The position numbers and the translations under genes are program-made. The notes beneath the pieces were generated by a model. That model was given only the letters and a program-made list of their open reading frames with translations. It was not told where the DNA came from and made no database searches. A DNA stretch of 64,000 bases, from contig CAYZFQ010000001.1 of the NCBI GenBank assembly GCA_964477895.1, positions 343,750-407,749 on the forward strand. Reading direction: 5' to 3'. Shown piece after piece: positions 9,682-52,448 of the stretch. The stretch comes from an uncultured Bacteriovoracaceae bacterium (lineage in GTDB: Bacteria > Bdellovibrionota > UBA2428). Positions within the stretch are counted from its first letter, which is position 1, and the number at the start of each line of letters is the position of its first letter.

Positions 9682-10155
9682 ATGTCTGACAAGCTCCCCC
9701 TTACCGTTGAAGGTAAATTAGCTTTAGAAGAGGAATTAAAACGCCTCAAGCATGTCGATCGCCCTGCGGTGATTGAGCAAATTGCTATTGCTCGGGCACA
9801 TGGTGATCTGTCAGAAAATGCGGAATATTCCGCCGCCCGTGAAAAGCAAAGTTTTATTGAAGGTCGTATCTTAGATATCGGCGATAAATTAGCGCGTGCC
9901 GAAGTCATCGACGTGAGAAATATCCAGTCTGATAAAATCGTCTTTGGTGCTCACGTGGTAGCCCAAGATCCCGATGGCAAAGAAATTTCCGTGCAAATTG
10001 TGGGCGAGCCCGAAGCTGACTTAGCTCGCGGCAAGCTTTCCGTTTCAGCACCCCTGGCCCGCGCTTTGTTAGGCAAAGTTGAAGGTGACGAAGCCATTGT
10101 TAAAAGTCCTAAAGGCGACATCGCCTACGACATTATCAAAGTCGAATACAAATAG
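9682..10155 (+). CDS. greA: transcription elongation factor GreA, 157 aa
   Basis: N-terminal coiled-coil (LTVEGKLALEEELKRLK...) plus C-terminal FKBP-like domain. Typical length. Confidence 0.9.
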   Translation: MSDKLPLTVEGKLALEEELKRLKHVDRPAVIEQIAIARAHGDLSENAEYSAAREKQSFIEGRILDIGDKLARAEVIDVRNIQSDKIVFGAHVVAQDPDGKEISVQIVGEPEADLARGKLSVSAPLARALLGKVEGDEAIVKSPKGDIAYDIIKVEYK

Positions 10156-35891: not shown

Positions 35892-36077
35892 ATGAACGTT
35901 AAGAAGAACAAAAAAAGAGGCCAAACTTCGGTGGAGTACATTCTCATTATCGGAGTCATTGTGGGCGTGATTATGCTTTTCGGAAAAACATTCCGTGAAA
36001 AAATCGCGGTTATCACGGATGGTCTTTTCTCGAACATCAACAGCAATATTCAGAGCAGCACCAACCCCGGAGGTTGA
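35892..36077 (+). CDS. flp: Flp/Fap-family type IVb pilin 1, 61 aa
   Basis: Basic leader then G/QTSVEYILIIGVIVGVIML: the Flp motif, with a prepilin-peptidase site after Gly and the conserved E-Y. Confidence 0.8.
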   Translation: MNVKKNKKRGQTSVEYILIIGVIVGVIMLFGKTFREKIAVITDGLFSNINSNIQSSTNPGG

Positions 36078-36525: not shown

Positions 36526-37146
36526 ATGAAAGGCGCATCTTCACGTTCTAAAAGCGGCCAAACAGTTATTGAGTTTTCTTTTGTTATTATTCTTTTTGTT
36601 TTTATGATGATGGTCACCATCAATGCGGTGATTGCCTTTTGCACCCACCAGTACGTATCTTATGCCGTTTTTATGTCGGCTCGGGCCTACCAGGCTGCGG
36701 GGGGCACGGCCGACGAATCTCACACCCGAGCTGTGGCAGCTCTTCAATCCTACCTACCGGGCATTCCCGACGACAGCGGTGAAGGCCTTAGTATTCCTCT
36801 CACCATGCCGGGGATGGCCAAGCCCATTGCCACTATCGAGGGCGTGAACGTGCGTTCCCCCCAGCTTTATGACTATGGCCCCGCTGGTGAAATCGCAAAC
36901 GTAGAAATTTATGTGGATTTTTCTGTTCCTTTTGTGGACCTCCCCTTAGGACCGGAAATGCGGGCGCGGTTCGGAAAAATTCCTCTCCGGGCCAGTTCAT
37001 TTTTTGGCCGAGAAGCCTCACAGCAAGAATGCCAAGCTTTTTTTAAAAGATTCTTAGAGTCTTTTAAGATTTCCGGAGAAGTCGCGGGAGCTTACGAGAA
37101 CTTTTCCTCGGAGTTTTTTGGAAATATGGAGGACAACGGATGTTGA
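36526..37146 (+). CDS. tadE: TadE-like pseudopilin, 206 aa
   Basis: N-terminus SKSGQTVIEFSFVIILFVFMMM, as in the TadE/TadG N-terminal domain. Confidence 0.65.
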   Translation: MKGASSRSKSGQTVIEFSFVIILFVFMMMVTINAVIAFCTHQYVSYAVFMSARAYQAAGGTADESHTRAVAALQSYLPGIPDDSGEGLSIPLTMPGMAKPIATIEGVNVRSPQLYDYGPAGEIANVEIYVDFSVPFVDLPLGPEMRARFGKIPLRASSFFGREASQQECQAFFKRFLESFKISGEVAGAYENFSSEFFGNMEDNGC

Positions 37147-37662: not shown

Positions 37663-38580
37663 GTGAACCAGTCGAGAGCCTTCTTGATGAGCATCGTGTT
37701 TGCCGGCCTCGCCATGCTTTTGGTTTACTTTTACGTTTCCGAGCGTGAGAGCAGCATTTCCGCCGAATACGGCACGCCCATTGCGGTGATCGTTGCCGCC
37801 AAAGACATCAACGAGTTCGAAGAAATTCAGCAAAGCATGTTGGCCGTAAAAGTCGTGCCCATGAAATTTGCTCAGCCAGGCGCTTACAACATGATCAAAT
37901 CGGGTAAGACCGAAAAACTTTCGCAGTTTACGGTAGAAACTTTTGTGGGCGCCGTGGCTTCGGCTCCCATTCGTAAGGGTGAGCAGGTCCTCTTAAATAA
38001 AGTTTTACTCAAGGGCGTGGAAACAGGCTTGGCCTCACAAGTCGCCATTTCGCGCCGAGCTCTTTCGATTCCCGTGAACGACACCACGGGAGTGACTAAA
38101 CTTTTAAAACCCGGCGACCGCGTGGATCTTATCGCGAGCGTTCAGTACAAGGGTCAGGGCGGTCAGGAATCTGAAGTTAAAACCCTCATGCAAAACGTTC
38201 ACGTTTTGGCCGTGGGTGAAGTGATCCAAAATAAAATTCCTACAGCCTTTGAAGTGGATCCTCTTTCAGGAACCCGAAAGGCTTTGAACCTTCGGGGGAG
38301 CCGCCAGTTCGGAACCATCACCGTAGAGGTCACCCCCGGCGAAGCTCAAAATATTATATGGGCTCTTCAAAACGGTTCTGAAATTTATACCAGCCTTCGA
38401 AATCCCGTAGATCGTGTGGTGGCCTCCGTCCCCACATCAACTGTGGACGAAGTCTTGGGACCTAACTCCAAAAAGGCCGAGCGGGAGCGAGTCAAACCCG
38501 TTATCAAGCCCGTGGAAAAAGCTCCGCCTCCGCCACCGCCTTCCAGCTTCAGCAACTCGGGTGGGGGATTATTTAAATAA
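37663..38580 (+). CDS. cpaB: Flp pilus assembly protein CpaB/RcpC, 305 aa
   Basis: N-terminal TM anchor then SAF/beta-rich domains. Gene order conserved with the Tad locus. C-terminal PPPPPPSS tract. Confidence 0.75.
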   Translation: MNQSRAFLMSIVFAGLAMLLVYFYVSERESSISAEYGTPIAVIVAAKDINEFEEIQQSMLAVKVVPMKFAQPGAYNMIKSGKTEKLSQFTVETFVGAVASAPIRKGEQVLLNKVLLKGVETGLASQVAISRRALSIPVNDTTGVTKLLKPGDRVDLIASVQYKGQGGQESEVKTLMQNVHVLAVGEVIQNKIPTAFEVDPLSGTRKALNLRGSRQFGTITVEVTPGEAQNIIWALQNGSEIYTSLRNPVDRVVASVPTSTVDEVLGPNSKKAERERVKPVIKPVEKAPPPPPPSSFSNSGGGLFK

Positions 38581-38581
38581 T

Positions 38582-40414
38582 ATGAGAAAGTCTTTCTTAA
38601 AGTTTTCTCTTTTGGTACTCGGAGTTTTTATAGGCTCCCTTCGAGCTCAGGACGCCGAGCCGGCTCCAGATTCCTCAACTAACCGAAATCCAGCCATGGT
38701 TCCTCCGGCGGGTTCACCGGCCGAAGCTGAGCCCGCACCCACTCCCTTGGCTGAAGAAACCCCAGCTCCCACTCCGCTTAAGGAAACCCTTTCATTAATA
38801 GACGGGATTAAAAGCGATGTTCCTGGATCCATTGCAGATACCAACGTTAACCGAATCATGGAATCTAAGGTTAAGTCCCAAACTTTAAATCCTGACAAAG
38901 GCTTTGAAGACCTCTTCTTAACTAAGAACTCCAGTGCGGTATTAGACATTCATAAACTGCCCGTGAAAAATCCCGGGGAAGATTTGGAATGGCTCCAAAC
39001 CAATATTGGCATTGTGGCCAAATCAGAAAAAGACCCCTCAGGTGGTTTTCGTGTTTATGCGGGAACCCAAGTGGGTTCGACTCAAATTCTTGTTTACGAG
39101 CGCAAGGCCGCTGTTGCCGGTAAACGAGATCGTGGAAATCTCCTTAAAGTCTACCGAGTAACGGTAACCAGCGAAGACCTTCTTTCACTGCTCCAAGAAA
39201 TTAAGGCCCTAATCGGAAATGTGGAAGGTCTAGATATTCGAGTGGTGGGCACCCAAGTCGTGATTGATGGAGCGGTCCTTGTCCCCAAAGACATGCGCCG
39301 AGTGGTGGCCGTGGTGAGCAAATATCAAACAGAGAAAAAGCCAGTGATTAACTTAGCTGAGATCTCTCCTCTAACTACCAAGCTTCTGGCTGAAAAAATG
39401 GAAGAAGAAATTGCGGGTGGAAAAGACCGACCCCGCGAAATTAAAGTTAAAGTCGTGAACGGAAGGTTTTTCCTAGAAGGTGCGGTAGACAAACAGGCTG
39501 AGCGTGAAACCGCCGTTCGAATTTGCCAAGCCTACATTTCAGAGCGCTACACCCTTGAAAACTCAGCCTCGGTGCAATCGCCTCGAATTCCAGGCCTTAA
39601 TGAATGTGTGCTGATGGTAAAGATTCGCCAAGGCCAGCCGGCGGATCCCGATCCCATCATTAGTGTACGCGTGGATTTTGTTACTTTAGATCGAAACTAC
39701 CTTAAGAGCTTTAACTTTAGGTGGGCGCCTGGAATGAACTTGAAGGGCGAAGTGGGTTATTCCAGTGACGCCGGAAAATTTCTCACTTCCTTTGTGGGCC
39801 TCTTGGATAATCTATTTCCCAAGTTAGAAACAGCGGCTTCTCATGGACATGCGCGTATTCTTAAAACGGCAACTCTTCTTGTGCGAGACGGCGAGAACGC
39901 GGCCAAAGGTGGGGGAGCGCCGCCCGAGGCTCAAATATCTGAAGTGTTAAAACTTCCTGTAATGATTCAGGGCACCGCTAATTCGCCAGGATCTTTCACC
40001 ACGGTTCCGGTTGAAACCTACATTAAAATTTTGGCCAAATCGGTGCCAGGGTCCGACAAAGTGAATATGGATATCTCAGCCAAGCAGTCTGAGATTAAAA
40101 GCCAAAACAAAGAGCAAGGTCCCACCGTCTTAGACAACATGATCCAAACCAGTATCGTGGTGGCCAACGGTGAAAGTGCGGCCTTAGGTGGCTTGATTGC
40201 CGAACGTCGCAACGTAGATATCACCCGGGACCCGGCCTCCGATGGTAACGCGGCCACTTCAGCCCAAAATAAATTTGAACTCTTCGACATCGGTCGAGGT
40301 CATAGCTTCAGCGACTCCAAAGTGCAGTTTATTGTCTTTGCCACACCCGAGAAACTGCGCACACCCTCTGAAGGAACCGAAAAACTTAAGCGTAAGTTTA
40401 GGTTGAGGAAGTAA
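38582..40414 (+). CDS. cpaC: Flp pilus secretin CpaC/RcpA, about 610 aa from ATG 38582
   Basis: Signal peptide MRKSFLKFSLLVLGVFIGSLRAQ. C-terminal secretin signature VVANGESAALGGLI. The track ORF begins inside cpaB. Confidence 0.8.
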   Translation: MRKSFLKFSLLVLGVFIGSLRAQDAEPAPDSSTNRNPAMVPPAGSPAEAEPAPTPLAEETPAPTPLKETLSLIDGIKSDVPGSIADTNVNRIMESKVKSQTLNPDKGFEDLFLTKNSSAVLDIHKLPVKNPGEDLEWLQTNIGIVAKSEKDPSGGFRVYAGTQVGSTQILVYERKAAVAGKRDRGNLLKVYRVTVTSEDLLSLLQEIKALIGNVEGLDIRVVGTQVVIDGAVLVPKDMRRVVAVVSKYQTEKKPVINLAEISPLTTKLLAEKMEEEIAGGKDRPREIKVKVVNGRFFLEGAVDKQAERETAVRICQAYISERYTLENSASVQSPRIPGLNECVLMVKIRQGQPADPDPIISVRVDFVTLDRNYLKSFNFRWAPGMNLKGEVGYSSDAGKFLTSFVGLLDNLFPKLETAASHGHARILKTATLLVRDGENAAKGGGAPPEAQISEVLKLPVMIQGTANSPGSFTTVPVETYIKILAKSVPGSDKVNMDISAKQSEIKSQNKEQGPTVLDNMIQTSIVVANGESAALGGLIAERRNVDITRDPASDGNAATSAQNKFELFDIGRGHSFSDSKVQFIVFATPEKLRTPSEGTEKLKRKFRLRK

Positions 40415-40417
40415 ATC

Positions 40418-42607
40418 ATGGCTGATCCAAACCAAAGTCCGGGCGGTCACATCATCGCCATCGTAGGTGGTAAGGGTGGAGTTGGAAAATCAGTTTTTGC
40501 CGCCAACTTTGCCCTCTCCATGGCCATCGATGCCAAGAATGGCCCGGCTCTAATTGATATGGATCCTCAGGGTACCGGCGACTTAAATTTGATCTTAGGC
40601 ATCAAGCAGGTCAAAGGTTTCGGTGAGCAAGTGCTCGAGGGAAAGATTCGAGATTCTGCGGCCCTAAAGCAATTTCTGACCCCAGCTCCTAACACACAGA
40701 GCCCACTTTACACCTTGCAGATGATGAGCAACCCTGAGCGCCTTCTCGTCCAAGATGATGAGCGTGTGGATTTAGCCTTAAAATCTTTGCGCAAAGCCTT
40801 TCCTGTAACCATCATCGACTGTGGCACTTCACTTGAAGGGCCGATTCTTAAAGTTTTGGATTTGGCTTCGATGATCATGGTAGTGACCAACCCCGAGATT
40901 CTTGTTCTCAACCAGACGAAGAAGATCTTAGATAAAATCCAAACCCTGCTTTATCCGCCCGACATGACAAAAATAGTTTTAAACAAGGTTTCACCTCAAA
41001 GTCCCTACACGGCGCAATTTTTAGAGCAAAGTCTTAAGCGCCAGGTGATATCTGTGGTCCCTGAAGATGTGGCTGCCGCCAGTATGGGTTTGGCCAAAGG
41101 ATCTCCTTTTGTGGTGTCTTCACCTCAGTCCGGCGCCTCCAAAGCTCTTTTCCAGCTCAGTCGCCTGCTCATTGAGCGCAAAGTCTTAGATCAGCTCCAA
41201 ACTCTAAGTCGCCCCCCTCGTCCCAAAGCGGCCTTGGAAGTTATTGAGGGCGGAGCCTCATCGGTGGCTGCAGGCTCCAGCGGTAACAATGAGGTTAAGC
41301 ACGGACGTTTTGGAAAGGATCCCAGAGATCCGCGCAGCATTTTTAAACTCCGAGTCCATGCTCAGCTTGTTGAAAAAATGGATTTAAAAAAAGAACAGCT
41401 CGATCGGGCCTTAGACAACGAGAAAAAAGTGGAGCTTAAGAACAAAGCTCTTAAAATCGTGAGTGAGATCATGAATAACGAAGACCACCCTTGGAAGAGC
41501 CGCGAAGACAGCGCTCAACTCATCAAGGAAGTCTTAGATGAGGCCCTAGCCCTGGGGCCCTTAGAAGATTTGATAGCCGATGATTCCGTTACCGAAATCA
41601 TGGTGAACCGAGCTGACCTAATTTATATTGAGCGCGCGGGTCGCAATACTAAGTCTAAAGTAACTTTTTCAAGCAATACCCAGTTGATGGCGGTCATTGA
41701 GCGGATCGTCAATCCTATCGGCCGGCGCATTGATGAAAAAACCCCCTACGTAGACGCCCGTTTAGCAGACGGAAGCCGGGTCCATGCCATCATTCCTCCC
41801 CTTTCATTAGATGGTCCCATGGTCACCATTCGTAAATTTCCTAAAAAGCGATTGGGCCCTGAAGATTTAATTAAATACGGTTCGGTCACACCCGAAATGT
41901 CAGATTTTTTACGAGCCTGCATTGAAGCCCGCCTCAATGTGATTGTGAGTGGGGGTACGGGTTCTGGTAAAACCACTCTTTTAAATATTTTATCAAGTTT
42001 TATCCCAGCAACTGAACGTATCCTTACCGTGGAAGACGCGGCCGAGTTGCGGCTTAACCAAGAGCACGTGGGCCGTTTAGAAACACGTCCTCCCAATATC
42101 GAAGGCGCCGGTGCTGTTACTATTCGAGATCTGGTACGCCAAACTCTGCGTATGAAACCTGACCGCATCATCATTGGTGAAGTGCGAGCCGGTGAGGCGC
42201 TCGACATGCTTCAGGCCATGAATACGGGGCACGATGGTTCAATGGCCACGGTCCATGCCAATACTCCGCGAGATGCCATCGCTCGTTTGGAAACTCTCGT
42301 GATGATGGCGGGCATGGACTTACCCGCCAAGGCCATTCGCGACCAAATTTCTAGCGCTGTGCATTTGGTGGTTCAACAAAGCCGTTTATCCGATGGGTCT
42401 CGTAAAGTGACTTACGTGACGGAGATCACCGGGATGCAGGGAGATGTGATTTCTTCCCAAGATATATTTCAGTTTAAGCAACAAGGTTTGGATTCCAATC
42501 GCAAGGTAATCGGTAAGCACGTGGCGACCGGTTTTATTCCTAAGTTTATCGAGAGGATTGAGGCTTTGGGAATCAAAATTCCCCGAGGACTCTTTAAAGC
42601 GGCATGA
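40418..42607 (+). CDS. fused TadZ/CpaE-like ParA-type ATPase (N-terminal about 260 aa) and TadA/CpaF secretion ATPase (C-terminal), 729 aa
   Basis: Deviant Walker A IVGGKGGVGKS near the N-terminus (ParA/MinD). Later VSGGTGSGKTT, DRIIIGEVR and GHDGSMATVHAN (VirB11/TadA). A single uninterrupted ORF. Confidence 0.8.
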   Translation: MADPNQSPGGHIIAIVGGKGGVGKSVFAANFALSMAIDAKNGPALIDMDPQGTGDLNLILGIKQVKGFGEQVLEGKIRDSAALKQFLTPAPNTQSPLYTLQMMSNPERLLVQDDERVDLALKSLRKAFPVTIIDCGTSLEGPILKVLDLASMIMVVTNPEILVLNQTKKILDKIQTLLYPPDMTKIVLNKVSPQSPYTAQFLEQSLKRQVISVVPEDVAAASMGLAKGSPFVVSSPQSGASKALFQLSRLLIERKVLDQLQTLSRPPRPKAALEVIEGGASSVAAGSSGNNEVKHGRFGKDPRDPRSIFKLRVHAQLVEKMDLKKEQLDRALDNEKKVELKNKALKIVSEIMNNEDHPWKSREDSAQLIKEVLDEALALGPLEDLIADDSVTEIMVNRADLIYIERAGRNTKSKVTFSSNTQLMAVIERIVNPIGRRIDEKTPYVDARLADGSRVHAIIPPLSLDGPMVTIRKFPKKRLGPEDLIKYGSVTPEMSDFLRACIEARLNVIVSGGTGSGKTTLLNILSSFIPATERILTVEDAAELRLNQEHVGRLETRPPNIEGAGAVTIRDLVRQTLRMKPDRIIIGEVRAGEALDMLQAMNTGHDGSMATVHANTPRDAIARLETLVMMAGMDLPAKAIRDQISSAVHLVVQQSRLSDGSRKVTYVTEITGMQGDVISSQDIFQFKQQGLDSNRKVIGKHVATGFIPKFIERIEALGIKIPRGLFKAA

Positions 42608-43473
42608 ACGTTTGGCTTATCTCCATACTTTCAGCGCTGCTTTTCTTTTTTTCGCTGTATCTTTCTTTTGATTATTGGTTCGAAAAACTCTGGCTGGGTA
42701 ACATGGTCAAAACCACAGAAGAAGCCGTGCGAGTTTTTGAAGATGTCTTTCAGCCCAAAACTATTGAACAAATGCGCAACCTGCAACTATCTATTGCCGG
42801 TGGCTCTTCGGCTCTAATTTTATTCCTGTGTTGGCCGGAAGTGGCCATAGGTATCCCCGCAGCTTTAATTACTTTTTGGTACACCTGGAAGCTGCCCCTT
42901 GTTTATATCAAGTATTGGGTGCGCCCCCGTCGAATTACCCAGTTTTCCCACCAAATGGTGGACGCTCTGACTCTTATGGCTAACGGTCTTAAGTCCGGGC
43001 TCAACATCTCCCAGGCTTTGCAAATTGTGGTGGACGAGATGCCGGCCCCCATTCGGGAAGAGTTTGGTTTAGTGCTCAACGAGAATAAAATCGGGGCCAC
43101 CTTAGAGAAGGCTTTTGAGAACATGGGAGCTCGGATGCCGTCAGAAGACGTGAGCATGTTTGTGACCTCGGTAAACATTTTGCGCGAAACAGGCGGTAAC
43201 ATCGCCGAAACTTTTGAAACCATTACCAAAACCATCCGCGAACGCATCAAATTACAGAATAAAATATCAGCCATGACGGCCCAAGGGATGACTTCAGCCT
43301 TCATTGTAGGAGCCATGCCCTGGGGCATTGGCATCATGCTCTATGGGATCGACCCTGACACGATGCGGCCAGTCTTCACTCGGGCCGCGGGCATTGTGAT
43401 CTTAATGATTATTACGGCACTCGAGGTGCTAGGTTTCTACGTGATCGTCAAAATTGTGAGGATCCGCGTATGA
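42604..43473 (+). CDS. tadB: TadB/TadC-type (T2SS-F domain) inner-membrane platform protein, 289 aa
   Basis: Three TM segments with a T2SS-F fold. Only one copy present. 4-nt overlap with the ATPase gene. Confidence 0.75.
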   Translation: MNVWLISILSALLFFFSLYLSFDYWFEKLWLGNMVKTTEEAVRVFEDVFQPKTIEQMRNLQLSIAGGSSALILFLCWPEVAIGIPAALITFWYTWKLPLVYIKYWVRPRRITQFSHQMVDALTLMANGLKSGLNISQALQIVVDEMPAPIREEFGLVLNENKIGATLEKAFENMGARMPSEDVSMFVTSVNILRETGGNIAETFETITKTIRERIKLQNKISAMTAQGMTSAFIVGAMPWGIGIMLYGIDPDTMRPVFTRAAGIVILMIITALEVLGFYVIVKIVRIRV

Positions 43474-43553
43474 TACAGAGGGCCCATGAAAAACTATTGA
43501 CGCCTTACCGGATGAGAAACCGGGTTAGACTATTAAAAAGTTCAGGAGGGATT

Positions 43554-45149
43554 ATGGCTCGTACTCGAAATCTTTGGCTTCTTGGAGTTCTTTTATTCAG
43601 TGCTTCTATCTCGCAGGCGGGAGTGAACGTGAACAACGGGAATTTCTACATTGCGTATACGGATTTTTTCCTTCCCACTCCGGGACTGAATGTGGAAATC
43701 ACCCGCACCTACAATAGCCGATCAAACTATGCCAAAGGCTACTTTGGGATGGGTTGGTCCTCTGAAATGGAAGGTTACCTAGTTTTCGATAAGAGCACCT
43801 TGGTTTACTTCGAGGGAGGCGGAGGTAACGCCGTTCGCTTCGAGCCTGTGAAAGGTAAAAAAGGGGAGTGGTCTAACTCCATCTACGGAAATCAAAATAT
43901 TCGGCAAATCAAAAATGGCTATGTGCTGCGCACTCCCGTGGCTAAGGACCTCCAGTTTGATATGAAGGGCCGGCTGGCCAAGATTTCCGACCGCAATCGC
44001 AATTACATTGAGTTTGTCTACAAGGGTGTTCGCCCGCAGATGATCAAAGACAACCACAATAACCAAATCAAAATTAGCTGGAAAGACTTCGGAAAGTTCC
44101 CCCGAATTGTGGCTCTCGAGCGTGGTGAAATGAAAGCCCGATATGAGTATTCACCAACCGGTGATCTTGTTAAGGCCTCCGGCCTCGATGGCAACCCTTT
44201 CGAGTACGCCTGGGATGACGAACACAATCTCACCAAGATTTCTTATAAAGACGGCACCTACCGAGAAATCGCTTACAACAAAGTTCGCGACTGGGTTGTG
44301 AAGTACCGGGAGCGCGACAAATGGATTACCGACTACGAATATATCTCGGATACTTTAGATCCAGAGAATAAATTTGGAACCGTTGTGAGCCGCTACAAAG
44401 AGGGCTCAAAAGATAAAGAATCATCGCGCTACTGGTACGAGTTCCGCCGGCGCGCGGATGGCAGTCGTTACAATTACAAAGCCGTAACGCTAGCCAATAA
44501 CTTAGCGACAGAGTCCATCTTCACGGAGTGTTGCAATACTCCACTTGTCATTTCGCAGTGGAACAGCAATGACCCCAAACGAAGTGACGCACCGGATGCC
44601 TGGATTACAGCCAAGGGTCAAAAGCGCTCCACTTTTTTTGAATATTATGCCGATGGATTGTTAAAGAAGAAAACGGCTCCGGATGGAGCTGTAACTTTCT
44701 TAACCTACGATCCTAAAAATGGGAAAGTGGCCTCGGTAAGCCGTGCCGGTCGTAAAGTGGAATACAACTACGATGTGCGCGGAAACTTAGACTGGGCCTA
44801 CGATAGTGGCGACAATAAGCGCATTGACCTGACCTACGACCTTAAGGGTCGAATCACGGTAGTTAAAGAAGCGATCAATGGTGCCAAAGCCAGCTCTCGA
44901 CTCGTGTACTTCCGCTACAATGCTGAAGGAAAACCGATTGAGGTGAAAGAAAAAACTTCAGACGGCAACCAAGGATCCATTCAAATTGCCTACGATCGTA
45001 ACGGCGAAGTCTTAGCCATCACCAACAGTAAGGGTCGGGCCGTAGCTTCTGAGAACGAAATCGCAACGGCTCAGCGAGTGGCCATGACTTTCCAGAACTT
45101 AATGGAAATCGTGCAGCCCGCAGGGGTTAGCCTGAGTCCGGAAGGGTGA
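43554..45149 (+). CDS. secreted YD/RHS-repeat protein, about 531 aa from ATG 43554
   Basis: Perfect SD CAGGAGGG plus signal peptide. Repeated Y-x-YD/YEY motifs (YEYSPTGDLV, FEYAWDDEHNL, VEYNYDVRGNL, LTYDLKGRI). Plausible counterpart of Bdellovibrio hit-locus partner protein. Confidence 0.7.
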   Translation: MARTRNLWLLGVLLFSASISQAGVNVNNGNFYIAYTDFFLPTPGLNVEITRTYNSRSNYAKGYFGMGWSSEMEGYLVFDKSTLVYFEGGGGNAVRFEPVKGKKGEWSNSIYGNQNIRQIKNGYVLRTPVAKDLQFDMKGRLAKISDRNRNYIEFVYKGVRPQMIKDNHNNQIKISWKDFGKFPRIVALERGEMKARYEYSPTGDLVKASGLDGNPFEYAWDDEHNLTKISYKDGTYREIAYNKVRDWVVKYRERDKWITDYEYISDTLDPENKFGTVVSRYKEGSKDKESSRYWYEFRRRADGSRYNYKAVTLANNLATESIFTECCNTPLVISQWNSNDPKRSDAPDAWITAKGQKRSTFFEYYADGLLKKKTAPDGAVTFLTYDPKNGKVASVSRAGRKVEYNYDVRGNLDWAYDSGDNKRIDLTYDLKGRITVVKEAINGAKASSRLVYFRYNAEGKPIEVKEKTSDGNQGSIQIAYDRNGEVLAITNSKGRAVASENEIATAQRVAMTFQNLMEIVQPAGVSLSPEG

Positions 45150-45161
45150 TAGGGGAAGAAA

Positions 45162-45584
45162 ATGAAAATAAAAATTTTATCTCTTCTCAGTATTTTTACT
45201 CTCACAAGCTCCGCTTTTGCCCAAGGCTACATTCAGGGTAGGGGCGGCGGAGGCTGGGATCAGCAAGGCGGCACCCAAGAAACGATTCGTTATCGTGAAA
45301 GCTATAACCAGCAGGGCGGTCAGCAGGGCGCCTACGTGAATTGTATGCCGAATTGTCCACCCTCGGTGGTGATGCCACAGCGCTCCCAGGTGCTAGTTGC
45401 TGAAACCGGTGACATCATCAATGGTTGCGACACGGGCCGCTTTGATAAAAAAGAATGGCGCAACGACTACCGTGATGAAGGCGACGAACGCGAGCACGTG
45501 ATCAGAGAAAGAGTGTATGTACCACCTCGGTCAGAAGGCGATGGTAAAGAAGTGCCTCCAAGAAGTAACGGTTTAAAGAAGTAA
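45162..45584 (+). CDS. small secreted Gln/Gly-rich, four-Cys protein, 140 aa; candidate hit-locus (Bd0108-like) protein
   Basis: Signal peptide. GGGGWDQQGGTQ...NQQGGQQG repeats encoded by imperfect direct repeats CAGCA(A/G)GGCGG at 45261, 45309 and 45321. Position immediately after the tad genes and the YD-repeat gene. Confidence 0.5.
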   Translation: MKIKILSLLSIFTLTSSAFAQGYIQGRGGGGWDQQGGTQETIRYRESYNQQGGQQGAYVNCMPNCPPSVVMPQRSQVLVAETGDIINGCDTGRFDKKEWRNDYRDEGDEREHVIRERVYVPPRSEGDGKEVPPRSNGLKK

Positions 45585-47729
45585 TTACTTCGTAACTCCA
45601 CCTGTGTAAGAAGGCAGCCAGCTCCAGCCCCAAGTGCTGGGCTTATTCCAAATGCGCTTTGGAGGTCCCGCTTTTTTCGGCTGCCAGTTCCATCCGGGCA
45701 TTCCCTTAATGGAATAAGTTTGCTTTCGTTCTATTTCCCTTTCTTCAGCGGCAATTCTAATGGAACTTTCGCTCCACTGATCCGCTCTTTCAAAAGCCAA
45801 GCTAAGAGACTTAGCATCGTGCTGAGCACTGTCTAAGCGATTCAGGGAAGTGGTCTCTCTCCAGAACGGCTGGGTGGGTGTGGAAATTTCTGGCGTGGGC
45901 AGCTGGGCTTCCGCTTCAGGCAAATTAATTACCGCCACTACCCCTGGATGCTTTTCCAGATTAGCCATTTTTTCGGGACTGTGAGCTTCTTTTTCAGCGG
46001 CAGCCTCAGCTTCTTTGGTCATTGTCTTAATTTCTTCTTCAAGACCCTTTATGGCCTTGTCCAAGTTGGCAATGTCGCTAATGTCGAAGTCGCTTTTAGG
46101 AGGCCCAATGTCGTTTTTCTCTTGTATAAGTTTATACATTTCATCGCTTTTCGCCCGAATGGCCAAGTGGTCTTCTTTCGACATCATAGGACGAGCAATA
46201 ATCACAATAGACTTAGTCTCGGACGGTGGAGCCATGGGCATTGGGGGGCCTTCTAGCGCTGGCGCACCAGGCGGTAGCTTTCTAAACTCGAGTTGGGGTA
46301 TTTCTTCGTTGCCAGTCTTGGTGACATCGACCTCGATGAAGGGCACTAATTTTTCAACCGGAGCTTGTACTCTTTCTAAGGGCCAAAATCTTTTAGCAAA
46401 GGCGCCTTCAATCGCTGTGATAACATCTTCGGTTTTAGATAGGGCGCGAGCCACGTAAATCTCGCTATTCTTCGCATTGACTAATGCCGGACCATCGATG
46501 CCATTGTAAGTTCCAGCAAGATAGGCCGGTGAAAAGAATTTTTGGAGCATGGAGCGCACGAGCAGAAGATCTTCCCGATTTTGCTTCCACTGCTGATAAA
46601 AGGCACGAAGTTCTTCTTCTCTTTCCACTTCAGCAAACGAATTTTGTCCCAGATTCGAATGAATTCCTTCTAAATCAGGCATGAAATCATTTTTAACCAC
46701 ATCGAGATAGAGATCGCTGATATCTTTTTGAGCCCGGGCAAGGCTGTCGGCCACAGGATCTACACGGTAAACAGTGACCTTGGCTCGATAGGCCGTTTCA
46801 AGAGCGCCGACAACAATTCCCGCAATTGCAAGGCCAGAGGCGGTTTGACTCATGTGCCGACTCATCCCATCCATTAAATCTGGAATAAAGACCCGATTGC
46901 CGTAGCCTAAAAGGAGAGTGCCTGGCGCTGCAGGATTGGCGGGAGCCGTTGGAATCGCACCTTTCTTGGCGCGTTTCGCCAACACGCGTTTCCACTGTAA
47001 GTCGGAAATTCGTTTAGCATACCTGTTGCTAAACCAAAGTTGAGGTCGATGAGCTCGGCTTTGTAAACGATTGCCCGCCATCGAGAGGCCACCAATAACC
47101 ATGCGTCCGGTAAAGAGGGCGGCCGATGCCATGAGCCATCCTTCCGAGGCGTTATAGAAATTATTTGAGTGATATGAGAACTCTCCGTTTTGTTCGCGGT
47201 TTCGTTTAACTTCAAGCTCATTGCGCATTTTTGCTTGTAACGTGCTCATCAGCATGGAAATGGCGTCCCAAATGACGTCGGGCTTTTGAGGAAAGGTGAC
47301 GAGAGCGGTTCGAGAATAAACTTCTGTAATTTCTCCCATCATGGCTGCAAATGAAGCCTTCTCAGTGAGAGTATCAAAAAGCAAAGTTGCCACTTCGTCG
47401 GCTGCTTGCTCCGGGCTCAGAGAAAGAAGTACGGAGTTGGCGTAACGGTCGCGGCACCGCTTTCCATCGAGGCGTAACTCTTCGGCGGAAGCCTTGCCCT
47501 CCGGACTTTGAAGATTTTCATCAGGAGGCAAGAGCTTTCGATAAGTCTTAAAAGGTTCAGCGCGAGGGGTGGTGTCGAGTGCGGAGGCCTCTCTGTCTGC
47601 CAGAATACTTACGCACAGATATTCCGTGATTTTTTGCCGAGCGAGTTCGAAATCATCTTTAACTTCAGCCCCCTGGGCAGATAAAAAAGTGCCAGAAATC
47701 AACGCTAAGAAAAGGGTTTTGTAACTCAT
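45585..47729 (-). CDS. hypothetical secreted protein, 714 aa, Trp-rich C-terminal tail
   Basis: Signal peptide. C-terminus GMPGWNWQPKKAGPPKRIWNKPSTWGWSWLPSYTGG. Its stop codon abuts the stop of 45162..45584 (TAATTA). Confidence 0.6.
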   Translation of the reverse strand: MSYKTLFLALISGTFLSAQGAEVKDDFELARQKITEYLCVSILADREASALDTTPRAEPFKTYRKLLPPDENLQSPEGKASAEELRLDGKRCRDRYANSVLLSLSPEQAADEVATLLFDTLTEKASFAAMMGEITEVYSRTALVTFPQKPDVIWDAISMLMSTLQAKMRNELEVKRNREQNGEFSYHSNNFYNASEGWLMASAALFTGRMVIGGLSMAGNRLQSRAHRPQLWFSNRYAKRISDLQWKRVLAKRAKKGAIPTAPANPAAPGTLLLGYGNRVFIPDLMDGMSRHMSQTASGLAIAGIVVGALETAYRAKVTVYRVDPVADSLARAQKDISDLYLDVVKNDFMPDLEGIHSNLGQNSFAEVEREEELRAFYQQWKQNREDLLLVRSMLQKFFSPAYLAGTYNGIDGPALVNAKNSEIYVARALSKTEDVITAIEGAFAKRFWPLERVQAPVEKLVPFIEVDVTKTGNEEIPQLEFRKLPPGAPALEGPPMPMAPPSETKSIVIIARPMMSKEDHLAIRAKSDEMYKLIQEKNDIGPPKSDFDISDIANLDKAIKGLEEEIKTMTKEAEAAAEKEAHSPEKMANLEKHPGVVAVINLPEAEAQLPTPEISTPTQPFWRETTSLNRLDSAQHDAKSLSLAFERADQWSESSIRIAAEEREIERKQTYSIKGMPGWNWQPKKAGPPKRIWNKPSTWGWSWLPSYTGGVTK

Positions 47730-49141
47730 TCGGCAGCTCCATTTTTAGTGGTTCGGGGAAAGGTGGTCATATAATCATCAATGATAATTTCTACGGCTTT
47801 AGATGTGCGGCCATGGCGGTACATCTCACTTAAAGCTTGGAGGGCGAGAATTCCGGCATTTTGGGTGGATAGTCTCTGTGCTTCAAGACTGAGCGAAAAA
47901 GCAGCGGGATCCGCATCAAAGCGTTCCCATTCGGAGTAAAAAAGCTCGATGACTTTTGGATTGTTAAGCGCTTGGGAGCTATCCAAAAACTCTGCCGTGT
48001 CTCGGGCGACTGTTGCTTCATCAGTGGCCTCACGCACTTTTTCATAATGACTTTTTATAAGAACATGGGTTTTATCCATCGTGAGGCGGTAAAGATTAAT
48101 TGTTTGGGATTCGAAGCGGCGGAAGGCACTTTCTATATCCCAGGAATTGGCGGTTGATCTTAGCTTGCGAAATTCTTCTAAAGCCTCGAGGTATTTCTTT
48201 TCTGCCTTCAAATCCTGGTTGTAAAATTTGTTAACCCCAACGGCGATTCCAGCCGTGAGTAACATGGAAGAAAGCAACTGTTCGGGTTGAATGGTGTTGT
48301 AAACAGCTCTCCCTCCCTGCAGCATTTTTTTGGCCAAGCGCGGCCAGAGAGCCTTTTCATCGCTCAGAGCAAGTTGAGCTAAAAAAGAACAATTCTTTGA
48401 ATTTGACCACCGGCTAAAAGCCGAGGTCTCAAAAGCTTTTTCAACTACAAAGTTGGCCAAGGTGTTTTCCGCGCCGGCTAAGTAAAAATCTTCCACGTAT
48501 TCACGCAGAGCATTTTCCTCTAGGTCTACCGGAGCAACGTCGAGCTTTACACCTAGGATTTCAGCAGGTGATGTGGGGATTTTAAAAGAAGCCAAGGAGT
48601 TGCTCACTCCCTCGATGCCCTTAATCGACCCTGCCAGCGAAGCTGCGGGAATCGCCGAATAACCCAGTCGTAAAGCATTCTTTGACCAGGACCCACGAGC
48701 TGAGGCCAATAGATTGAGGTAGCGGCGCCTAAACACCGGGGTGCGGATTAAGCCGTTGAAGGCAAAGGCGGTATAAAGACCGTACTGAGCGCTTCGACCC
48801 AGAGACTCTTTTTTGAGGTCTGCAACTGTTGTTTCGTAGTTGGCGGTCCAGCGCTGTTGGGCTTTCCATAGCAAATCTAAATAAGCGTCATCAGTTTCTG
48901 AGAGTTCAGAAAAGTGTTCTAAAGTTTTGCGGTAGATAGGAGCAAAGGGGTCACGAAAGATTTCCGCGAGTATTTTGTTAGAATAGCGCCGCGCTAAATC
49001 CGGTTTTTGAGCATGATAATTTTTTACAAATTCGGCAGACCAGTTCTCGATCGGCATCTCCTCGGCATGCAAGAAGGCAGACAAAGCGAGGCCCAGAAAG
49101 GGACCTTTTTTCGCTAATGTCGTTAGAGCCTTCATTTTCAT
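47726..49141 (-). CDS. hypothetical secreted protein, 471 aa
   Basis: Signal peptide. ATGA overlap with the downstream 714-aa gene. Confidence 0.6.
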   Translation of the reverse strand: MKMKALTTLAKKGPFLGLALSAFLHAEEMPIENWSAEFVKNYHAQKPDLARRYSNKILAEIFRDPFAPIYRKTLEHFSELSETDDAYLDLLWKAQQRWTANYETTVADLKKESLGRSAQYGLYTAFAFNGLIRTPVFRRRYLNLLASARGSWSKNALRLGYSAIPAASLAGSIKGIEGVSNSLASFKIPTSPAEILGVKLDVAPVDLEENALREYVEDFYLAGAENTLANFVVEKAFETSAFSRWSNSKNCSFLAQLALSDEKALWPRLAKKMLQGGRAVYNTIQPEQLLSSMLLTAGIAVGVNKFYNQDLKAEKKYLEALEEFRKLRSTANSWDIESAFRRFESQTINLYRLTMDKTHVLIKSHYEKVREATDEATVARDTAEFLDSSQALNNPKVIELFYSEWERFDADPAAFSLSLEAQRLSTQNAGILALQALSEMYRHGRTSKAVEIIIDDYMTTFPRTTKNGAAE

Positions 49142-49160
49142 GCCTTCCTTAAAGTTTTCC

Positions 49161-52100
49161 CTAGTAACGCTCTTGGTAAAATTCTACGAGTTTTTGCTGC
49201 CGGATATTTGCCTCTTGATCGCGGCCCAATTTCCAGAGCTTTGTTTCCCAAGAAGTTAAGCCCGTAGATTTTTCGGCCAACAGAGCATCGACTCGGTAGG
49301 TTTTACCTAAGTTAATTTGCTCAATGAGGAAGTTACGGGCTTGCTCAATGGCGGTTGCATCAGCCTGAGCGTTGCGGGCTTTGGCAAGGTCAGAAAGAAT
49401 GCGAGCCTGCTCATTGATTTGAGCAACGTCCCACTCTCCCTCTTTAACCGCCAGGCGTTGAAAGGAAGACTTGGTCTGCAGAAGCCATTCGTAAAGTTTT
49501 CCGGGGGCTCCAAGACGCAGGCTGACGAGTTTGTATAGACCATAGCCACCCAGGCCGGTAAAAATCACCCCTGGAATAAAAAGGCGCAAGGCACTGGACT
49601 TGGCTTCGTCCTGGAATACGGCAAGCGCCGAAATATTATAAAAAGAAGAATTGGTGAGAGAGGATTGTTGGAGGTCATTTGCCAAATTGAGTTCCACCTT
49701 GTGGCGGCTAAAGTAGTCGCGTCCATCGTAATACATGTTAATGGCGATAAGGGGAATGATGGCCTTAAGCACTGTTCCTCCGAGGTGTGAAACGCCTCGA
49801 GAAAAACCTTCAGCTGCGATAATCCACATATTGCTGCGACCCACAAAGCGACGGGTCCCGAGGCGAGCGGCGTCTACGATAAGTAGGGCCCACAAACCCG
49901 CATTTACTGGCTGTAAAACCTGTTGGACGTAGTCTCGCGTGAAAACTTCAAAGGGATCTTTGTCGCTTAAGCCGTCGATGAACTCTTTCATGGGCTTTTG
50001 GTATTCTGGGAAACCTTCTAAAATCATTCTTCGAAGAATTGCAGATTTTAAGAGACCATCGAGCTCATAGTTTTTGTCGGACGTGAGGGCACTAATTTTT
50101 TGAATATTTGCCCGCGTTTCAATTTCTTGGATTTCCAAAGCCTTAGTGACGACCTTAGTGAGCATTCCGGGGAATTTTTTTGCCTCCAGAATCACTTCGT
50201 GTAGGGGGTGTGTTCCATTGGAAAGTTCCGTGAATTCAGTGCCTCGACCGGTTTTTAGGGGCATATTCAAGAAAGGTTCCGCTTCAAACTGAGCTTCTTG
50301 TTGTGCCGCTCGGTAGGAACTCAGGGCTGCAGGATTGTATTTGAAAACCGTTGCGGCATTGATGGACTGACGTTGGGCCGTGACGGGGTCAAAGAAGCGC
50401 AATTCCTTGCCCACGCCAACCCAGGCTTTAACCTCATCTTTAAGAATAGTCGCTTGGCTAGTGGCAATGCGCTGGTCGTACTTATCTTTAATGTTGGAAT
50501 CGGCGATCGCCTCATGTCCTTCCACGAATTTAAGGGCCGATTCCGCAGGATTGGTGGGATCCAACAATTTGGGGTCGATAAGCTCATAAAAACGCGAGAA
50601 GAAAACTTCACGCGCTCCAAGGTAGGTGCGGGGTTGGGGCTTAAGAGGATTCGTTTTATCAAGACCTAAGTCCACGAGCCACGGGCTAAGGCGCACGGAT
50701 TTGCCAAGGTGCAGCTTGGAGTTCGCTAAGGCGGAAGAAATGGCTTGGGGCATGGAGAGTGGCTGTAGGGCCGAATCATTTTTATAATCTTCAGCAGCCT
50801 TCACGATATGATAGGGAAAATCACTTTTACGCAAATCTTTTTCTTCGTTTTCCAAAGCAAGGACATTGCTGCGTTCAAGAAAGTCTTCGGCGTCTAAATT
50901 GAGGCGTTTTCGATAAGCCGCTTTCTGTTCTTCTAAACTCTGCTCAAGGCGATAGATGAGGGGCGCGAGTTTTTTATTTCGTTCCATGGCAGCTGCCTTT
51001 TGTGAGTCATCTTTCATGGCTGCAATAGCTGAGGGTCTCTGCCGAGCGAGAAAGGGAGACTTAAGCATGAGGCGAACTTTGGCTGTTTCAAACTGCGCTT
51101 CTACGATAGTTTTAAGAAGCATCTCTTCTCGAAGTTTGCGGGTGGTGCCTGAAAATACGTATTCGTGATTCTTTAAAATATTTGAGAAATTTTCCGGAAA
51201 GTCGATACGGAAGCCTTCGTTTAATTGAAGTCGGGCATTGTCCATCTGCATTTTTTTGTCGTCTGCGGTGATCTCGGGAATTTCTTTTATGAGCTCATCA
51301 AAAAATGAACTTAAATACTCGTCGGTGATAAAGGGTGGCAGCTGGGAATATTCCTTGTTTATCAACTCTAAAAGGGCGCGTCGAAAGCTGCTTTCCTTGG
51401 CGAGAATGGAATCTTCTCTGATCATTTCTGGCATCACTTTTAAGGCGGAATACTGGGCAGAAAAGGTCTTATTAAGTTCTCCTGGGCGACACTCTTCGCT
51501 CTTTTGACCGCGACGGCGACAGATGACTTTGAGATTGTCTTGCAATTGTTGAATGGCCAGAAATTGAGTGAGCTCAAAAAGAGCTTTTTTGTCGATGTTT
51601 TGTTTGTAGATGCGCTGGCCTTCGACCACCCCATGGATAAACCAAAGACTCAGTTGAACATTTACAACTTTGTCTTCTTTGGCTCTCGACCAGTCAAAGC
51701 TAAGGCTTCTGGATTTTCTTGGAAAGCGATCATCCACCTCATAGTTCATAAAGGGGAGGTTCATGGCCACCATTACAGGAACTCGAACGGTGAAACGTCG
51801 GCTAAAGTCATAGACTGAACTTTCGAGTGTAATTTCAGGGTTGCGCTCTCGGGCTAGGACCCGCAATGAGATAAGGCTTCGAACCAAATCGCGGTGGATC
51901 AAAATAAATCTCGCGAAATCGCCAGTAGTGCCCTGGAGGATTTGATCGCTTTCTCCATAGACTTCCATGAGCTTTGCCAGTTCACCGAGTTTGGTGTTGA
52001 GCAGGTGAGTAAATCCATCCACTTCTTTTTCGATGGCAAGAAGATCTTCGGTATTTACTAATTTGCTGATACCCGTGGTAGTCCCGTTGGGGTTCGTGGT

Positions 52101-52448
52101 CCCAGAATTTAAGAGCTCAAGTTTTTTCTCAATTGGCTCGGCATAGTTAAGGACTTCGGCGAAAGTTTTAAGCTTAAAATTGCCTAAAAGACTCGCGCGC
52201 TCTCCTTTGAGAATAATATGGCTTCCGTCCGCACTGACTTCGAAATTTTGCCCAGATGAGGGGGATTGAGTGGGGGGCGTTGGGGAGGGGGTCGAAGGAC
52301 TAACCGGAGATGAGGCTTCCTTCCCTTCGGTCGAGCCTCCAGAGGGTGAGCATCCCGCTAAAATCAGCGAGAATACGCTGAGAGCACCAAGTAAAAAATC
52401 CTTTTTTTGCCTTGCAAGTTTTTCCACGAGCCGCGGATTATAGCGCAT
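49161..52448 (-). CDS. large hypothetical lipoprotein, 1095 aa
   Basis: Lipobox LILAGC followed by an S/P/T-rich linker. No recognised catalytic motif. Confidence 0.6.
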   Translation of the reverse strand: MRYNPRLVEKLARQKKDFLLGALSVFSLILAGCSPSGGSTEGKEASSPVSPSTPSPTPPTQSPSSGQNFEVSADGSHIILKGERASLLGNFKLKTFAEVLNYAEPIEKKLELLNSGTTNPNGTTTGISKLVNTEDLLAIEKEVDGFTHLLNTKLGELAKLMEVYGESDQILQGTTGDFARFILIHRDLVRSLISLRVLARERNPEITLESSVYDFSRRFTVRVPVMVAMNLPFMNYEVDDRFPRKSRSLSFDWSRAKEDKVVNVQLSLWFIHGVVEGQRIYKQNIDKKALFELTQFLAIQQLQDNLKVICRRRGQKSEECRPGELNKTFSAQYSALKVMPEMIREDSILAKESSFRRALLELINKEYSQLPPFITDEYLSSFFDELIKEIPEITADDKKMQMDNARLQLNEGFRIDFPENFSNILKNHEYVFSGTTRKLREEMLLKTIVEAQFETAKVRLMLKSPFLARQRPSAIAAMKDDSQKAAAMERNKKLAPLIYRLEQSLEEQKAAYRKRLNLDAEDFLERSNVLALENEEKDLRKSDFPYHIVKAAEDYKNDSALQPLSMPQAISSALANSKLHLGKSVRLSPWLVDLGLDKTNPLKPQPRTYLGAREVFFSRFYELIDPKLLDPTNPAESALKFVEGHEAIADSNIKDKYDQRIATSQATILKDEVKAWVGVGKELRFFDPVTAQRQSINAATVFKYNPAALSSYRAAQQEAQFEAEPFLNMPLKTGRGTEFTELSNGTHPLHEVILEAKKFPGMLTKVVTKALEIQEIETRANIQKISALTSDKNYELDGLLKSAILRRMILEGFPEYQKPMKEFIDGLSDKDPFEVFTRDYVQQVLQPVNAGLWALLIVDAARLGTRRFVGRSNMWIIAAEGFSRGVSHLGGTVLKAIIPLIAINMYYDGRDYFSRHKVELNLANDLQQSSLTNSSFYNISALAVFQDEAKSSALRLFIPGVIFTGLGGYGLYKLVSLRLGAPGKLYEWLLQTKSSFQRLAVKEGEWDVAQINEQARILSDLAKARNAQADATAIEQARNFLIEQINLGKTYRVDALLAEKSTGLTSWETKLWKLGRDQEANIRQQKLVEFYQERY

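Follow-up and report, generated by a model that had tools for sequence, protein, structure and literature searches.

Of the genetic switches that move Bdellovibrio between obligate predation and axenic growth, the gene bd0108 is the best known. The small gene at 45162-45584 (+) of the window, by which we mean the whole 64-kb stretch of DNA analyzed here, raises the question of whether it is a counterpart of bd0108 and whether the short repeats within it act as a deletion hot spot. An earlier note, made from the DNA letters, proposed that the gene encodes a small secreted Q/G-rich protein, that it might be the hit homologue, and that deletions between its repeats could resemble the repeat-flanked in-frame hit deletions of host-independent (HI) conversion. 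The cited precedent agrees with the literature: of 54 host-independent mutants, 46% carry a 42-bp in-frame bd0108 deletion with 10-bp direct-repeat flanks (PMC3013116). The repeat is also seen in our reference hit locus, L086 (CP160489.1, B. bacteriovorus HD100-type, GCA_040746175.1), which was found via a Bd0108 fragment quoted in PMC3818213; it consists of two copies of CAAAGGCTCC spaced 42 bp and encoding KGS...KGS.

Based on Pfam assignments, the operon upstream of the small gene encodes components of a Tad/Flp (type IVb) pilus, all on the plus strand: a Flp-type pilin (35892-36077; Class_IIIsignal, Flp1_like), a TadE-like pseudopilin (36526-37146; TadE), RcpC/CpaB (37663-38580), an RcpA/CpaC-type secretin (38414-40414; Secretin, BON), a fused TadZ-like/CpaF (TadA) secretion ATPase (40418-42607; CbiA and T2SSE), and a TadB/C-type platform protein (42604-43473; T2SSF). 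The identities to the HD100 counterparts are 36% for RcpC/CpaB, 29% for the secretin, 48% for the ATPase (against a 739-aa protein), and 36% for the platform protein. The next gene (43470-45149, +) encodes a 559-aa RHS/YD-repeat protein with Pfam matches to DUF6531 and RHS repeats, and it aligns end to end with Bd0109 at 28% identity (E 4e-53). It has the features of a Bd0109-type protein, namely a length of ~550 aa, a DUF6531 N-domain, YD/RHS repeats, and a conserved C-terminal helix, with no toxin domain. The AF2 model of this protein (pLDDT 81) is a YD shell made up of beta-hairpins throughout, and its Foldseek matches include Rhs cores and teneurin (E ~1e-21), with T6SS Rhs cores as the best structural matches; the modeled shell is approximately half the size of T6SS Rhs cores. 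In sequence comparisons, the nearest relatives of the neighboring genes are Bacteriovoracaceae-type genomes.

For two of these genes, the start of the longest ORF is probably too early. The real start of the RHS gene is probably M29 at 43554 rather than 43470, and that of the secretin gene is probably M57 at 38582 rather than 38414; both are signal-peptide-like and fit the lengths of relatives and the ends of the preceding genes. The AF2 pLDDT is <50 over RHS residues 1-47.

According to the ORF list and the sequence, the small gene is an ORF of 140 aa with an ATG start. Its N-terminus reads as a Sec-type signal peptide (residues 1-20, encoded at 45162-45221, +), MKIKILSLLSIFTLTSSAFA followed by QG; it begins with basic residues, continues with a hydrophobic core, and has its A-x-A cleavage site between AFA and QG. 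A ribosome-binding-like site, GGGGAAG, lies 7 nt 5' of the ATG. The RHS stop codon and the small-gene start are 12 nt apart, and both genes are in the same frame; judging from this spacing alone, the small gene is very likely co-transcribed with the RHS gene. The mature protein of 120 residues contains 18 G, 12 R, 11 Q, and 10 E, with a Q/G-rich N-terminus and a charged C-terminal tail. Its Cys residues are at positions 61, 65, and 89; C61-MPN-C65 forms a CX3C, and the CXXC disulfide motif is absent. The AF2 model has a mean pLDDT of 36 without secondary structure, which for a single-sequence model is weak evidence for disorder, and the protein is probably largely disordered. The ORF, the Sec-type signal peptide, and the mature composition all fit the small secreted Q/G-rich protein proposed for this interval.

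Several further features surround the coding region. In the C-terminal tail (45518-45582), a second imperfect repeat encodes PPRSEGDGKEV and PPRSNGLKK; at the DNA level, this segment contains two copies of TAAAGAAGT spaced 29 bp and two copies of GAAGGCGA spaced 57 bp. The small-gene stop abuts the stop of a convergent 714-aa minus-strand ORF (45582-45587), with zero intergenic bases, and the same convergent arrangement is found 3' of the small gene at L083. The minus-strand ORFs of 714, 471, and 1095 aa (45585-52448) have no Pfam or NCBIfam match. Rfam has no match in the 64-kb window, and promoter and terminator scans gave signals at shuffle level only.

To relate the locus to hit, we compared the window with L086. 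Gene order and strand are identical from the secretin through TadZ/CpaF, TadB, and RHS to the small gene, with L086 ending in bd0109-bd0108. Because the operon is collinear and the small gene closes it, directly 3' of a Bd0109-type RHS gene, the gene is the positional counterpart of bd0108 in an orthologous locus. For the sequence comparison, wild-type Bd0108 (101 aa) was rebuilt from L086, which has a 1-bp insertion in the gene. The rebuilt protein agrees with all published residue numbers (D24, C56/C59, R73-Q101) and matches the NCBIfam model hit_Bd0108 (NF053838.1, an equivalog with a curated cut-off of 40 bits) at 102 bits (E 1.9e-29). This model has no match to the window protein at E<=0.1 and matches none of 25 positional relatives. 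Furthermore, BLASTP gave no alignment between the window protein and Bd0108, and hhalign profile-profile comparison aligned the signal peptide and nothing beyond. The alignment to Bd0108 that the earlier note had put forward as a check thus came out negative, so that the proposed hit homology stands for position and collinearity and falls for sequence similarity to Bd0108. Of the homology to hit-locus proteins on which that note had staked its proposal, that to Bd0108 is missing, whereas that to the flanking proteins is present (28-48% identity). Because sequence homology is undetectable, the argument for common descent with Bd0108 is one of position only.

Beyond position, the two proteins have several properties in common. 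Each is encoded by the last gene of the Tad operon, which directly follows a Bd0109-type RHS gene of the same orientation; both proteins are small (101 aa for Bd0108 and 140 aa for the window protein), have a Sec signal peptide, and contain a closely spaced Cys pair mid-protein. The window protein has the marks of a small exported disordered protein, with its AFA/Q site, low complexity, and, as weak evidence, the single-sequence AF2 model. Its low AF2 confidence parallels the disorder of Bd0108, which is proven by NMR (PMC4267844). Additionally, a perfect direct repeat of 10 bp, in frame, is present in both genes. The differences are equally clear. The window protein has a CX3C and a third Cys, in contrast to the CXXC (C56/C59) of Bd0108; CXXC is not universal, however, since the strain W homologue of Bd0108 is also without it (PMC4267844). 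The window protein has a Q/G-rich N-terminus and a charged C-terminal tail, and outside the signal peptide it shows no sequence similarity to Bd0108. Moreover, the perfect repeats are 12 bp apart, N-terminal, and encode QQGG in the window, whereas they are 42 bp apart, C-terminal, and encode KGS in bd0108. Because the protein regions and the encoded residues differ, the two sets of repeats arose independently.

The reference locus itself carries a mutation. In L086, bd0108 (9844-10150) has the 1-bp insertion (AACCCCTGG), which results in a 37-aa product, and the annotation calls only a 49-aa bd0108 fragment (P0122). This insertion equals the mutation c.98_99insC fs33+4 listed for the host-independent strain MHI353 (PMC11323537 Table 1), and the assembly is apparently that hit mutant.

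A pattern search located the three in-frame copies of CAGCA(A/G)GGCG(G/C) at 45261, 45309, and 45321, as previously claimed. In all 64 kb of the window, CAGCARGGCGS has exactly three matches, which fall at codons 34, 50, and 54; shuffling gives a mean expectation of 0.19, and 0/100 shuffles reach three, for a pattern that was defined after seeing the data. Copies 1 and 2 encode QQGG, as claimed, but copy 3 encodes QQGA. Copy 1, CAGCAAGGCGG (45261-45271, +; Q34 Q35 G36 G37), is imperfect relative to copies 2 and 3, with a mismatch at the central base that leaves longest exact blocks of 5+5 or 5+4 nt. Copies 2 and 3, CAGCAGGGCGGT CAGCAGGGCGCC (45309-45332, +; QQGG QQGA), are two 12-bp units identical at 10/12 positions, and the exact 10-bp repeat, spaced 12 bp, is limited to these two copies. 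Two QQG peptides would share all 9 nt with a probability of 0.067 under local codon usage; because their codons are identical, copies 2 and 3 are probably an old 12-bp tandem duplication.

As a DNA feature, the repeats are real but neither exceptional nor rare in the window, which contains seven direct repeats that are exact over at least 10 bp and lie within 60 bp, compared with 2.6 +/- 1.4 in shuffles. Tandem Repeats Finder reported no array at the small gene, and the locus has only two 12-bp units in place of the multi-unit tract of a simple-sequence contingency locus. Further pairs of exact 10-11-bp repeats, direct and no more than 60 bp apart, lie at 39239/39299, 40719/40753, 35004/35028, and 49317/49341, which indicates that such repeats are common in the window; two of them fall within genes of the Tad operon, those for the secretin and CpaF.

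Recombination between copies would always remain in frame, with deletions of 12, 48, and 60 bp giving products of 136, 124, and 120 aa, respectively. The predicted junctions are GGCTGGGAT joined to CAGCAGGGCGGTCAGCAGGGCGCC for the 48-bp deletion, GGCTGGGAT joined to CAGCAGGGCGCCTACGTG for the 60-bp deletion, and AGCTATAAC joined to CAGCAGGGCGCCTACGTG for the 12-bp deletion, while a 12-bp duplication allele would contain three consecutive CAGCAGGGCG units. In slipped misalignment, deletions become far less frequent when the homology is shorter or interrupted and more frequent when the repeats are close together. A 12-bp change is accordingly favored over the 48- and 60-bp deletions, and the likeliest slippage product would be gain or loss of one 12-bp unit (QQGG). 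The locus resembles slipped-strand contingency loci in having short in-frame direct repeats in the gene of a surface or periplasmic protein. Unlike those loci, it has two near-tandem 12-bp units and one imperfect distant copy, and ON/OFF phase variation is impossible because every deletion product is in frame.

From the sequence, it is plausible that the small-gene repeats are a deletion hot spot. A stronger reading is that they are a functional hot spot like that of bd0108, in which 48- or 60-bp in-frame deletions switch the cell to prey-independent growth; we regard this as unlikely. The small gene does occupy the bd0108 position, and TQETIRYRESYN, which alone in the N-terminal region is not of low complexity, would be lost in the 48- and 60-bp deletions. 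The 46% of HI mutants generated through the bd0108 repeat (PMC3013116) also indicate that a perfect 10-bp repeat is sufficient in B. bacteriovorus under strong selection. However, the pairs that would give the 48- and 60-bp deletions are interrupted by the central mismatch, with exact blocks of <=5 nt; homology with Bd0108 is absent, and the repeats lie in a different region of the protein. Moreover, B. exovorus, which has a recognizable homologue, yielded no HI variants (PMC4267844). No variant allele appears in the assemblies either: the window protein falls in a 90% cluster with one member sequence, two Logan contigs match the window without a single difference (100% identity) along 5.8 and 3.2 kb, and these three identical sources represent a single strain, a comparison that cannot reveal rare length alleles. 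A scan of JGI metagenomes for close relatives or alleles of the small gene found none.

To place the gene in its phylum, we examined what follows the RHS gene elsewhere in Bdellovibrionota. The 140-aa protein retrieved only itself in both a word-indexed search of 5.8 billion proteins and an exhaustive phmmer search of 1.84 billion representatives, and it had no match in Pfam, NCBIfam, or PDB sequence searches. The RHS protein, by comparison, has many relatives in Bdellovibrionota. Our genome scan covered 80 loci, mostly from Bacteriovoracaceae and Halobacteriovorax MAGs and isolates, and a small signal-peptide ORF (~55-130 aa) lies 3' of the RHS gene on the same strand at 79 of them; the sole exception is a contig ending 268 nt downstream. 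The products of these genes are secreted, Cys-containing, and of low complexity. L083 and L084, the loci with the closest RHS relatives (74% and 65% identical), both have a small secreted gene there. The L083 small protein is the sole detectable relative of the window protein (BLASTP 33% over 52 aa, E 6e-4), and the two share QRxQVxVAExxD...NGxxC..GR. In an alignment, 16 nearer relatives are Q/G/P/M-rich with a loose GE...GC...R...NG...GH core, of which the window protein keeps a part before its charged C-terminal tail; on these sequence features, it belongs to a separate Q/G/P/M-rich subgroup. In contrast, the marine-type relatives (tier-2 loci, RHS ~32% identical) are acidic, multi-Cys, and not Q/G-rich, and hhalign between the subgroups of small proteins found the signal peptide only and no further link.

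The principle of a divergent small secreted gene at this spot is already known (PMC3526173, PMC4267844). Like the window gene, BMS0183 and BMS0184 of Bacteriovorax (Halobacteriovorax) marinus SJ are small secreted genes adjoining a Bd0109 homologue, BMS_0182, in a syntenic hit/tad locus; unlike it, they form a tandem duplication and are shorter (~67 aa). According to one study, they resemble Bd0108 only over the first ~18 residues (PMC3526173), and another describes them as showing 'no significant homology' to it (PMC4267844). The window lineage and its Q/G-rich subgroup are new examples of such divergent post-RHS genes.

Some details of individual small proteins are recorded here. Residues 54-66 of Bd0108 ('GDCRECIAYRTG') resemble a C-x-E-C-[IV]-x3-[TG]G motif, preceded by LGE..GC, in nine marine-type relatives (L050, L068, L072, L031, L052, L046, L049, L070, and L021). 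The C-x-E-C-[IV] motif common to Bd0108 and these nine was tried as a link and rejected, as hhalign gives it no statistical support. The small ORF of L084 (1786-2262) contains a collagen-like GPQGPQGLQGPQGPRGPQGERGPTG tract and a 12-bp direct repeat and matches collagen-like adhesin models. Among the RHS proteins, 71/84 have exactly two, adjacent Cys residues (CC), and Bd0109 has four scattered ones; in the window, the CC pair is C354-C355 at 44529-44534, and C61, C65, and C89 of the small protein are encoded at 45342-45428. The mature Cys number is odd in 73/79 small downstream proteins, 43 of which have a single Cys, counts that come from loci that are not phylogenetically independent and from guessed cleavage sites. 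These patterns hint that the small protein and RHS may be joined by an intermolecular disulfide, or that a dimer may form.

Pairwise comparisons show a much higher rate of evolution in the small gene than in the neighboring RHS gene. Protein identities for RHS and the small protein are 100% and 85% between L037 and L040, 97% and 71% between L058 and L078, and 94% and 70% between L025 and L027, respectively. Gap openings per 100 aa are 1-7 in the small gene and 0-1.8 in the RHS gene, and dN/dS is 0.07-0.29 in the small gene versus 0.02-0.06 in the RHS gene. The former range indicates relaxed purifying selection on the small gene and not overall positive selection. In the two Halobacteriovorax genomes L037 and L040, DNA divergence rises from ~2% in RHS to ~20% in the small gene (~7600-8000) and stays near 15% downstream, and dS in the small gene is ~6 times higher; this jump could mark the edge of a recombined segment or reflect a locally raised mutation rate.

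We also inspected where these genes gain and lose sequence. In a DNA alignment of five relatives, in-frame indels cluster in a Q/M-rich stretch and a CAA/CAG run. Among moderately close pairs, with high divergence, a clear repeat-flanked signature was found in only 2 of ~17 indels, one a 21-nt indel with 7-nt microhomology and the other a CAA triplet slip. A direct repeat of at least 10 bp is present in 16/80 small genes, bd0108 and the window gene among them. The mean longest direct repeat is 8.45 bp in small genes, 8.05 bp in RHS segments of equal length, and 7.36 bp in shuffles, so the enrichment over the RHS controls is marginal. With 2 of ~17 indels repeat-flanked and means of 8.45 and 8.05 bp, slippage is not demonstrated as the main source of indels, and repeat-mediated slippage as their main cause in post-RHS small genes is plausible.

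In Rhs/WapA polymorphic-toxin systems, a small hypervariable gene follows the rhs gene, and the small gene might accordingly be read as an immunity protein or a cargo/toxin partner of RHS. A small, fast-evolving ORF directly 3' of the RHS gene would suit this reading, as would the resemblance of the modeled RHS fold to T6SS Rhs effector shells and the proposal of Prehna et al. that Bd0108 is encapsulated by Bd0109 (PMC4267844). We nevertheless consider it very unlikely. At 559 aa, the window RHS protein amounts to approximately half a shell, and it has no variable C-terminal toxin domain, no DPxG autoproteolysis motif, and no extra Pfam domain; its C-terminus is instead conserved among relatives, being kept in 20 of them. 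RHS can be 100% identical while the small protein differs by 15%, the opposite of toxin-immunity co-variation. Furthermore, the small protein is exported and of low complexity, unlike typical folded immunity proteins, and the operon is that of a pilus, not of a T6SS or CDI system. An Rhs toxin-immunity pair was rejected on these grounds.

The idea that 45162-45584 is not a gene and that its repeats arose by chance in intergenic or antisense sequence could draw on the lack of database homologues and of Pfam/NCBIfam matches and on the low-complexity composition, but it is hardly credible in view of the canonical signal peptide, the ribosome-binding-like site, the 12-nt coupling to the RHS gene, secreted small ORFs at this position in ~80 genomes, the pairwise-detectable homologue at the same position in L083, and dN/dS <0.3 among post-RHS small genes; it is a genuine gene and the terminal member of the Tad (type IVb) pilus operon of an uncultured bacterium of the Bdellovibrionota.

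Taking the locus as a whole, we think it reasonably probable that the gene at the end of this Tad operon is a diverged positional counterpart of bd0108 and that its repeats are a by-product of low-complexity coding, prone to 12-bp slippage. On this reading, the small protein would be exported by Sec and stay largely disordered. By analogy with Bd0108 and Bd0109, whose interaction has been shown biochemically (PMC3818213, PMC4267844), it may be a periplasmic protein that binds the RHS protein weakly, or modulates it, at the Tad pilus, and the RHS protein may in turn affect pilus activity. The gene would be one of a phylum-wide set of small secreted Cys-containing low-complexity genes that have diverged beyond sequence recognition. 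The three QQGG-coding repeats would then follow from low-complexity coding, with copies 2 and 3 making the region somewhat slippage-prone, most likely toward gain or loss of 12 bp, which fits the high density of in-frame indels among post-RHS small genes. Nothing indicates a dedicated or selected switching mechanism at the small gene.

According to the usual description in the literature, bd0108 occurs only in Bdellovibrio, and many relatives lack it (PMC3818213, PMC11870529). Our survey differs in that, in essentially all of the related genomes examined, the window included, the Bd0109-type RHS gene is followed by a small secreted, Cys-containing gene of low complexity; sequence searches miss these genes because they diverge so fast. 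A bolder interpretation, to which we give little credence, is that the post-RHS slot holds a hypervariable switch gene throughout the predatory Bdellovibrionota, whose low-complexity, repeat-encoded sequence is kept because in-frame indels between repeats, like the 42-bp deletion of bd0108, offer a recurrent route between prey-dependent and prey-independent growth. If this were true, the QQGG repeats of the window would be one lineage's version of the device, and the published 'absences' of bd0108 in many genomes would be artefacts of divergence. At the window locus itself, hot-spot function is a conjecture, and the organism is known from its assembly alone. Collectively, concrete repeat alleles are now defined for read data, and position offers a route to candidate 'hit' genes in uncultured predators.
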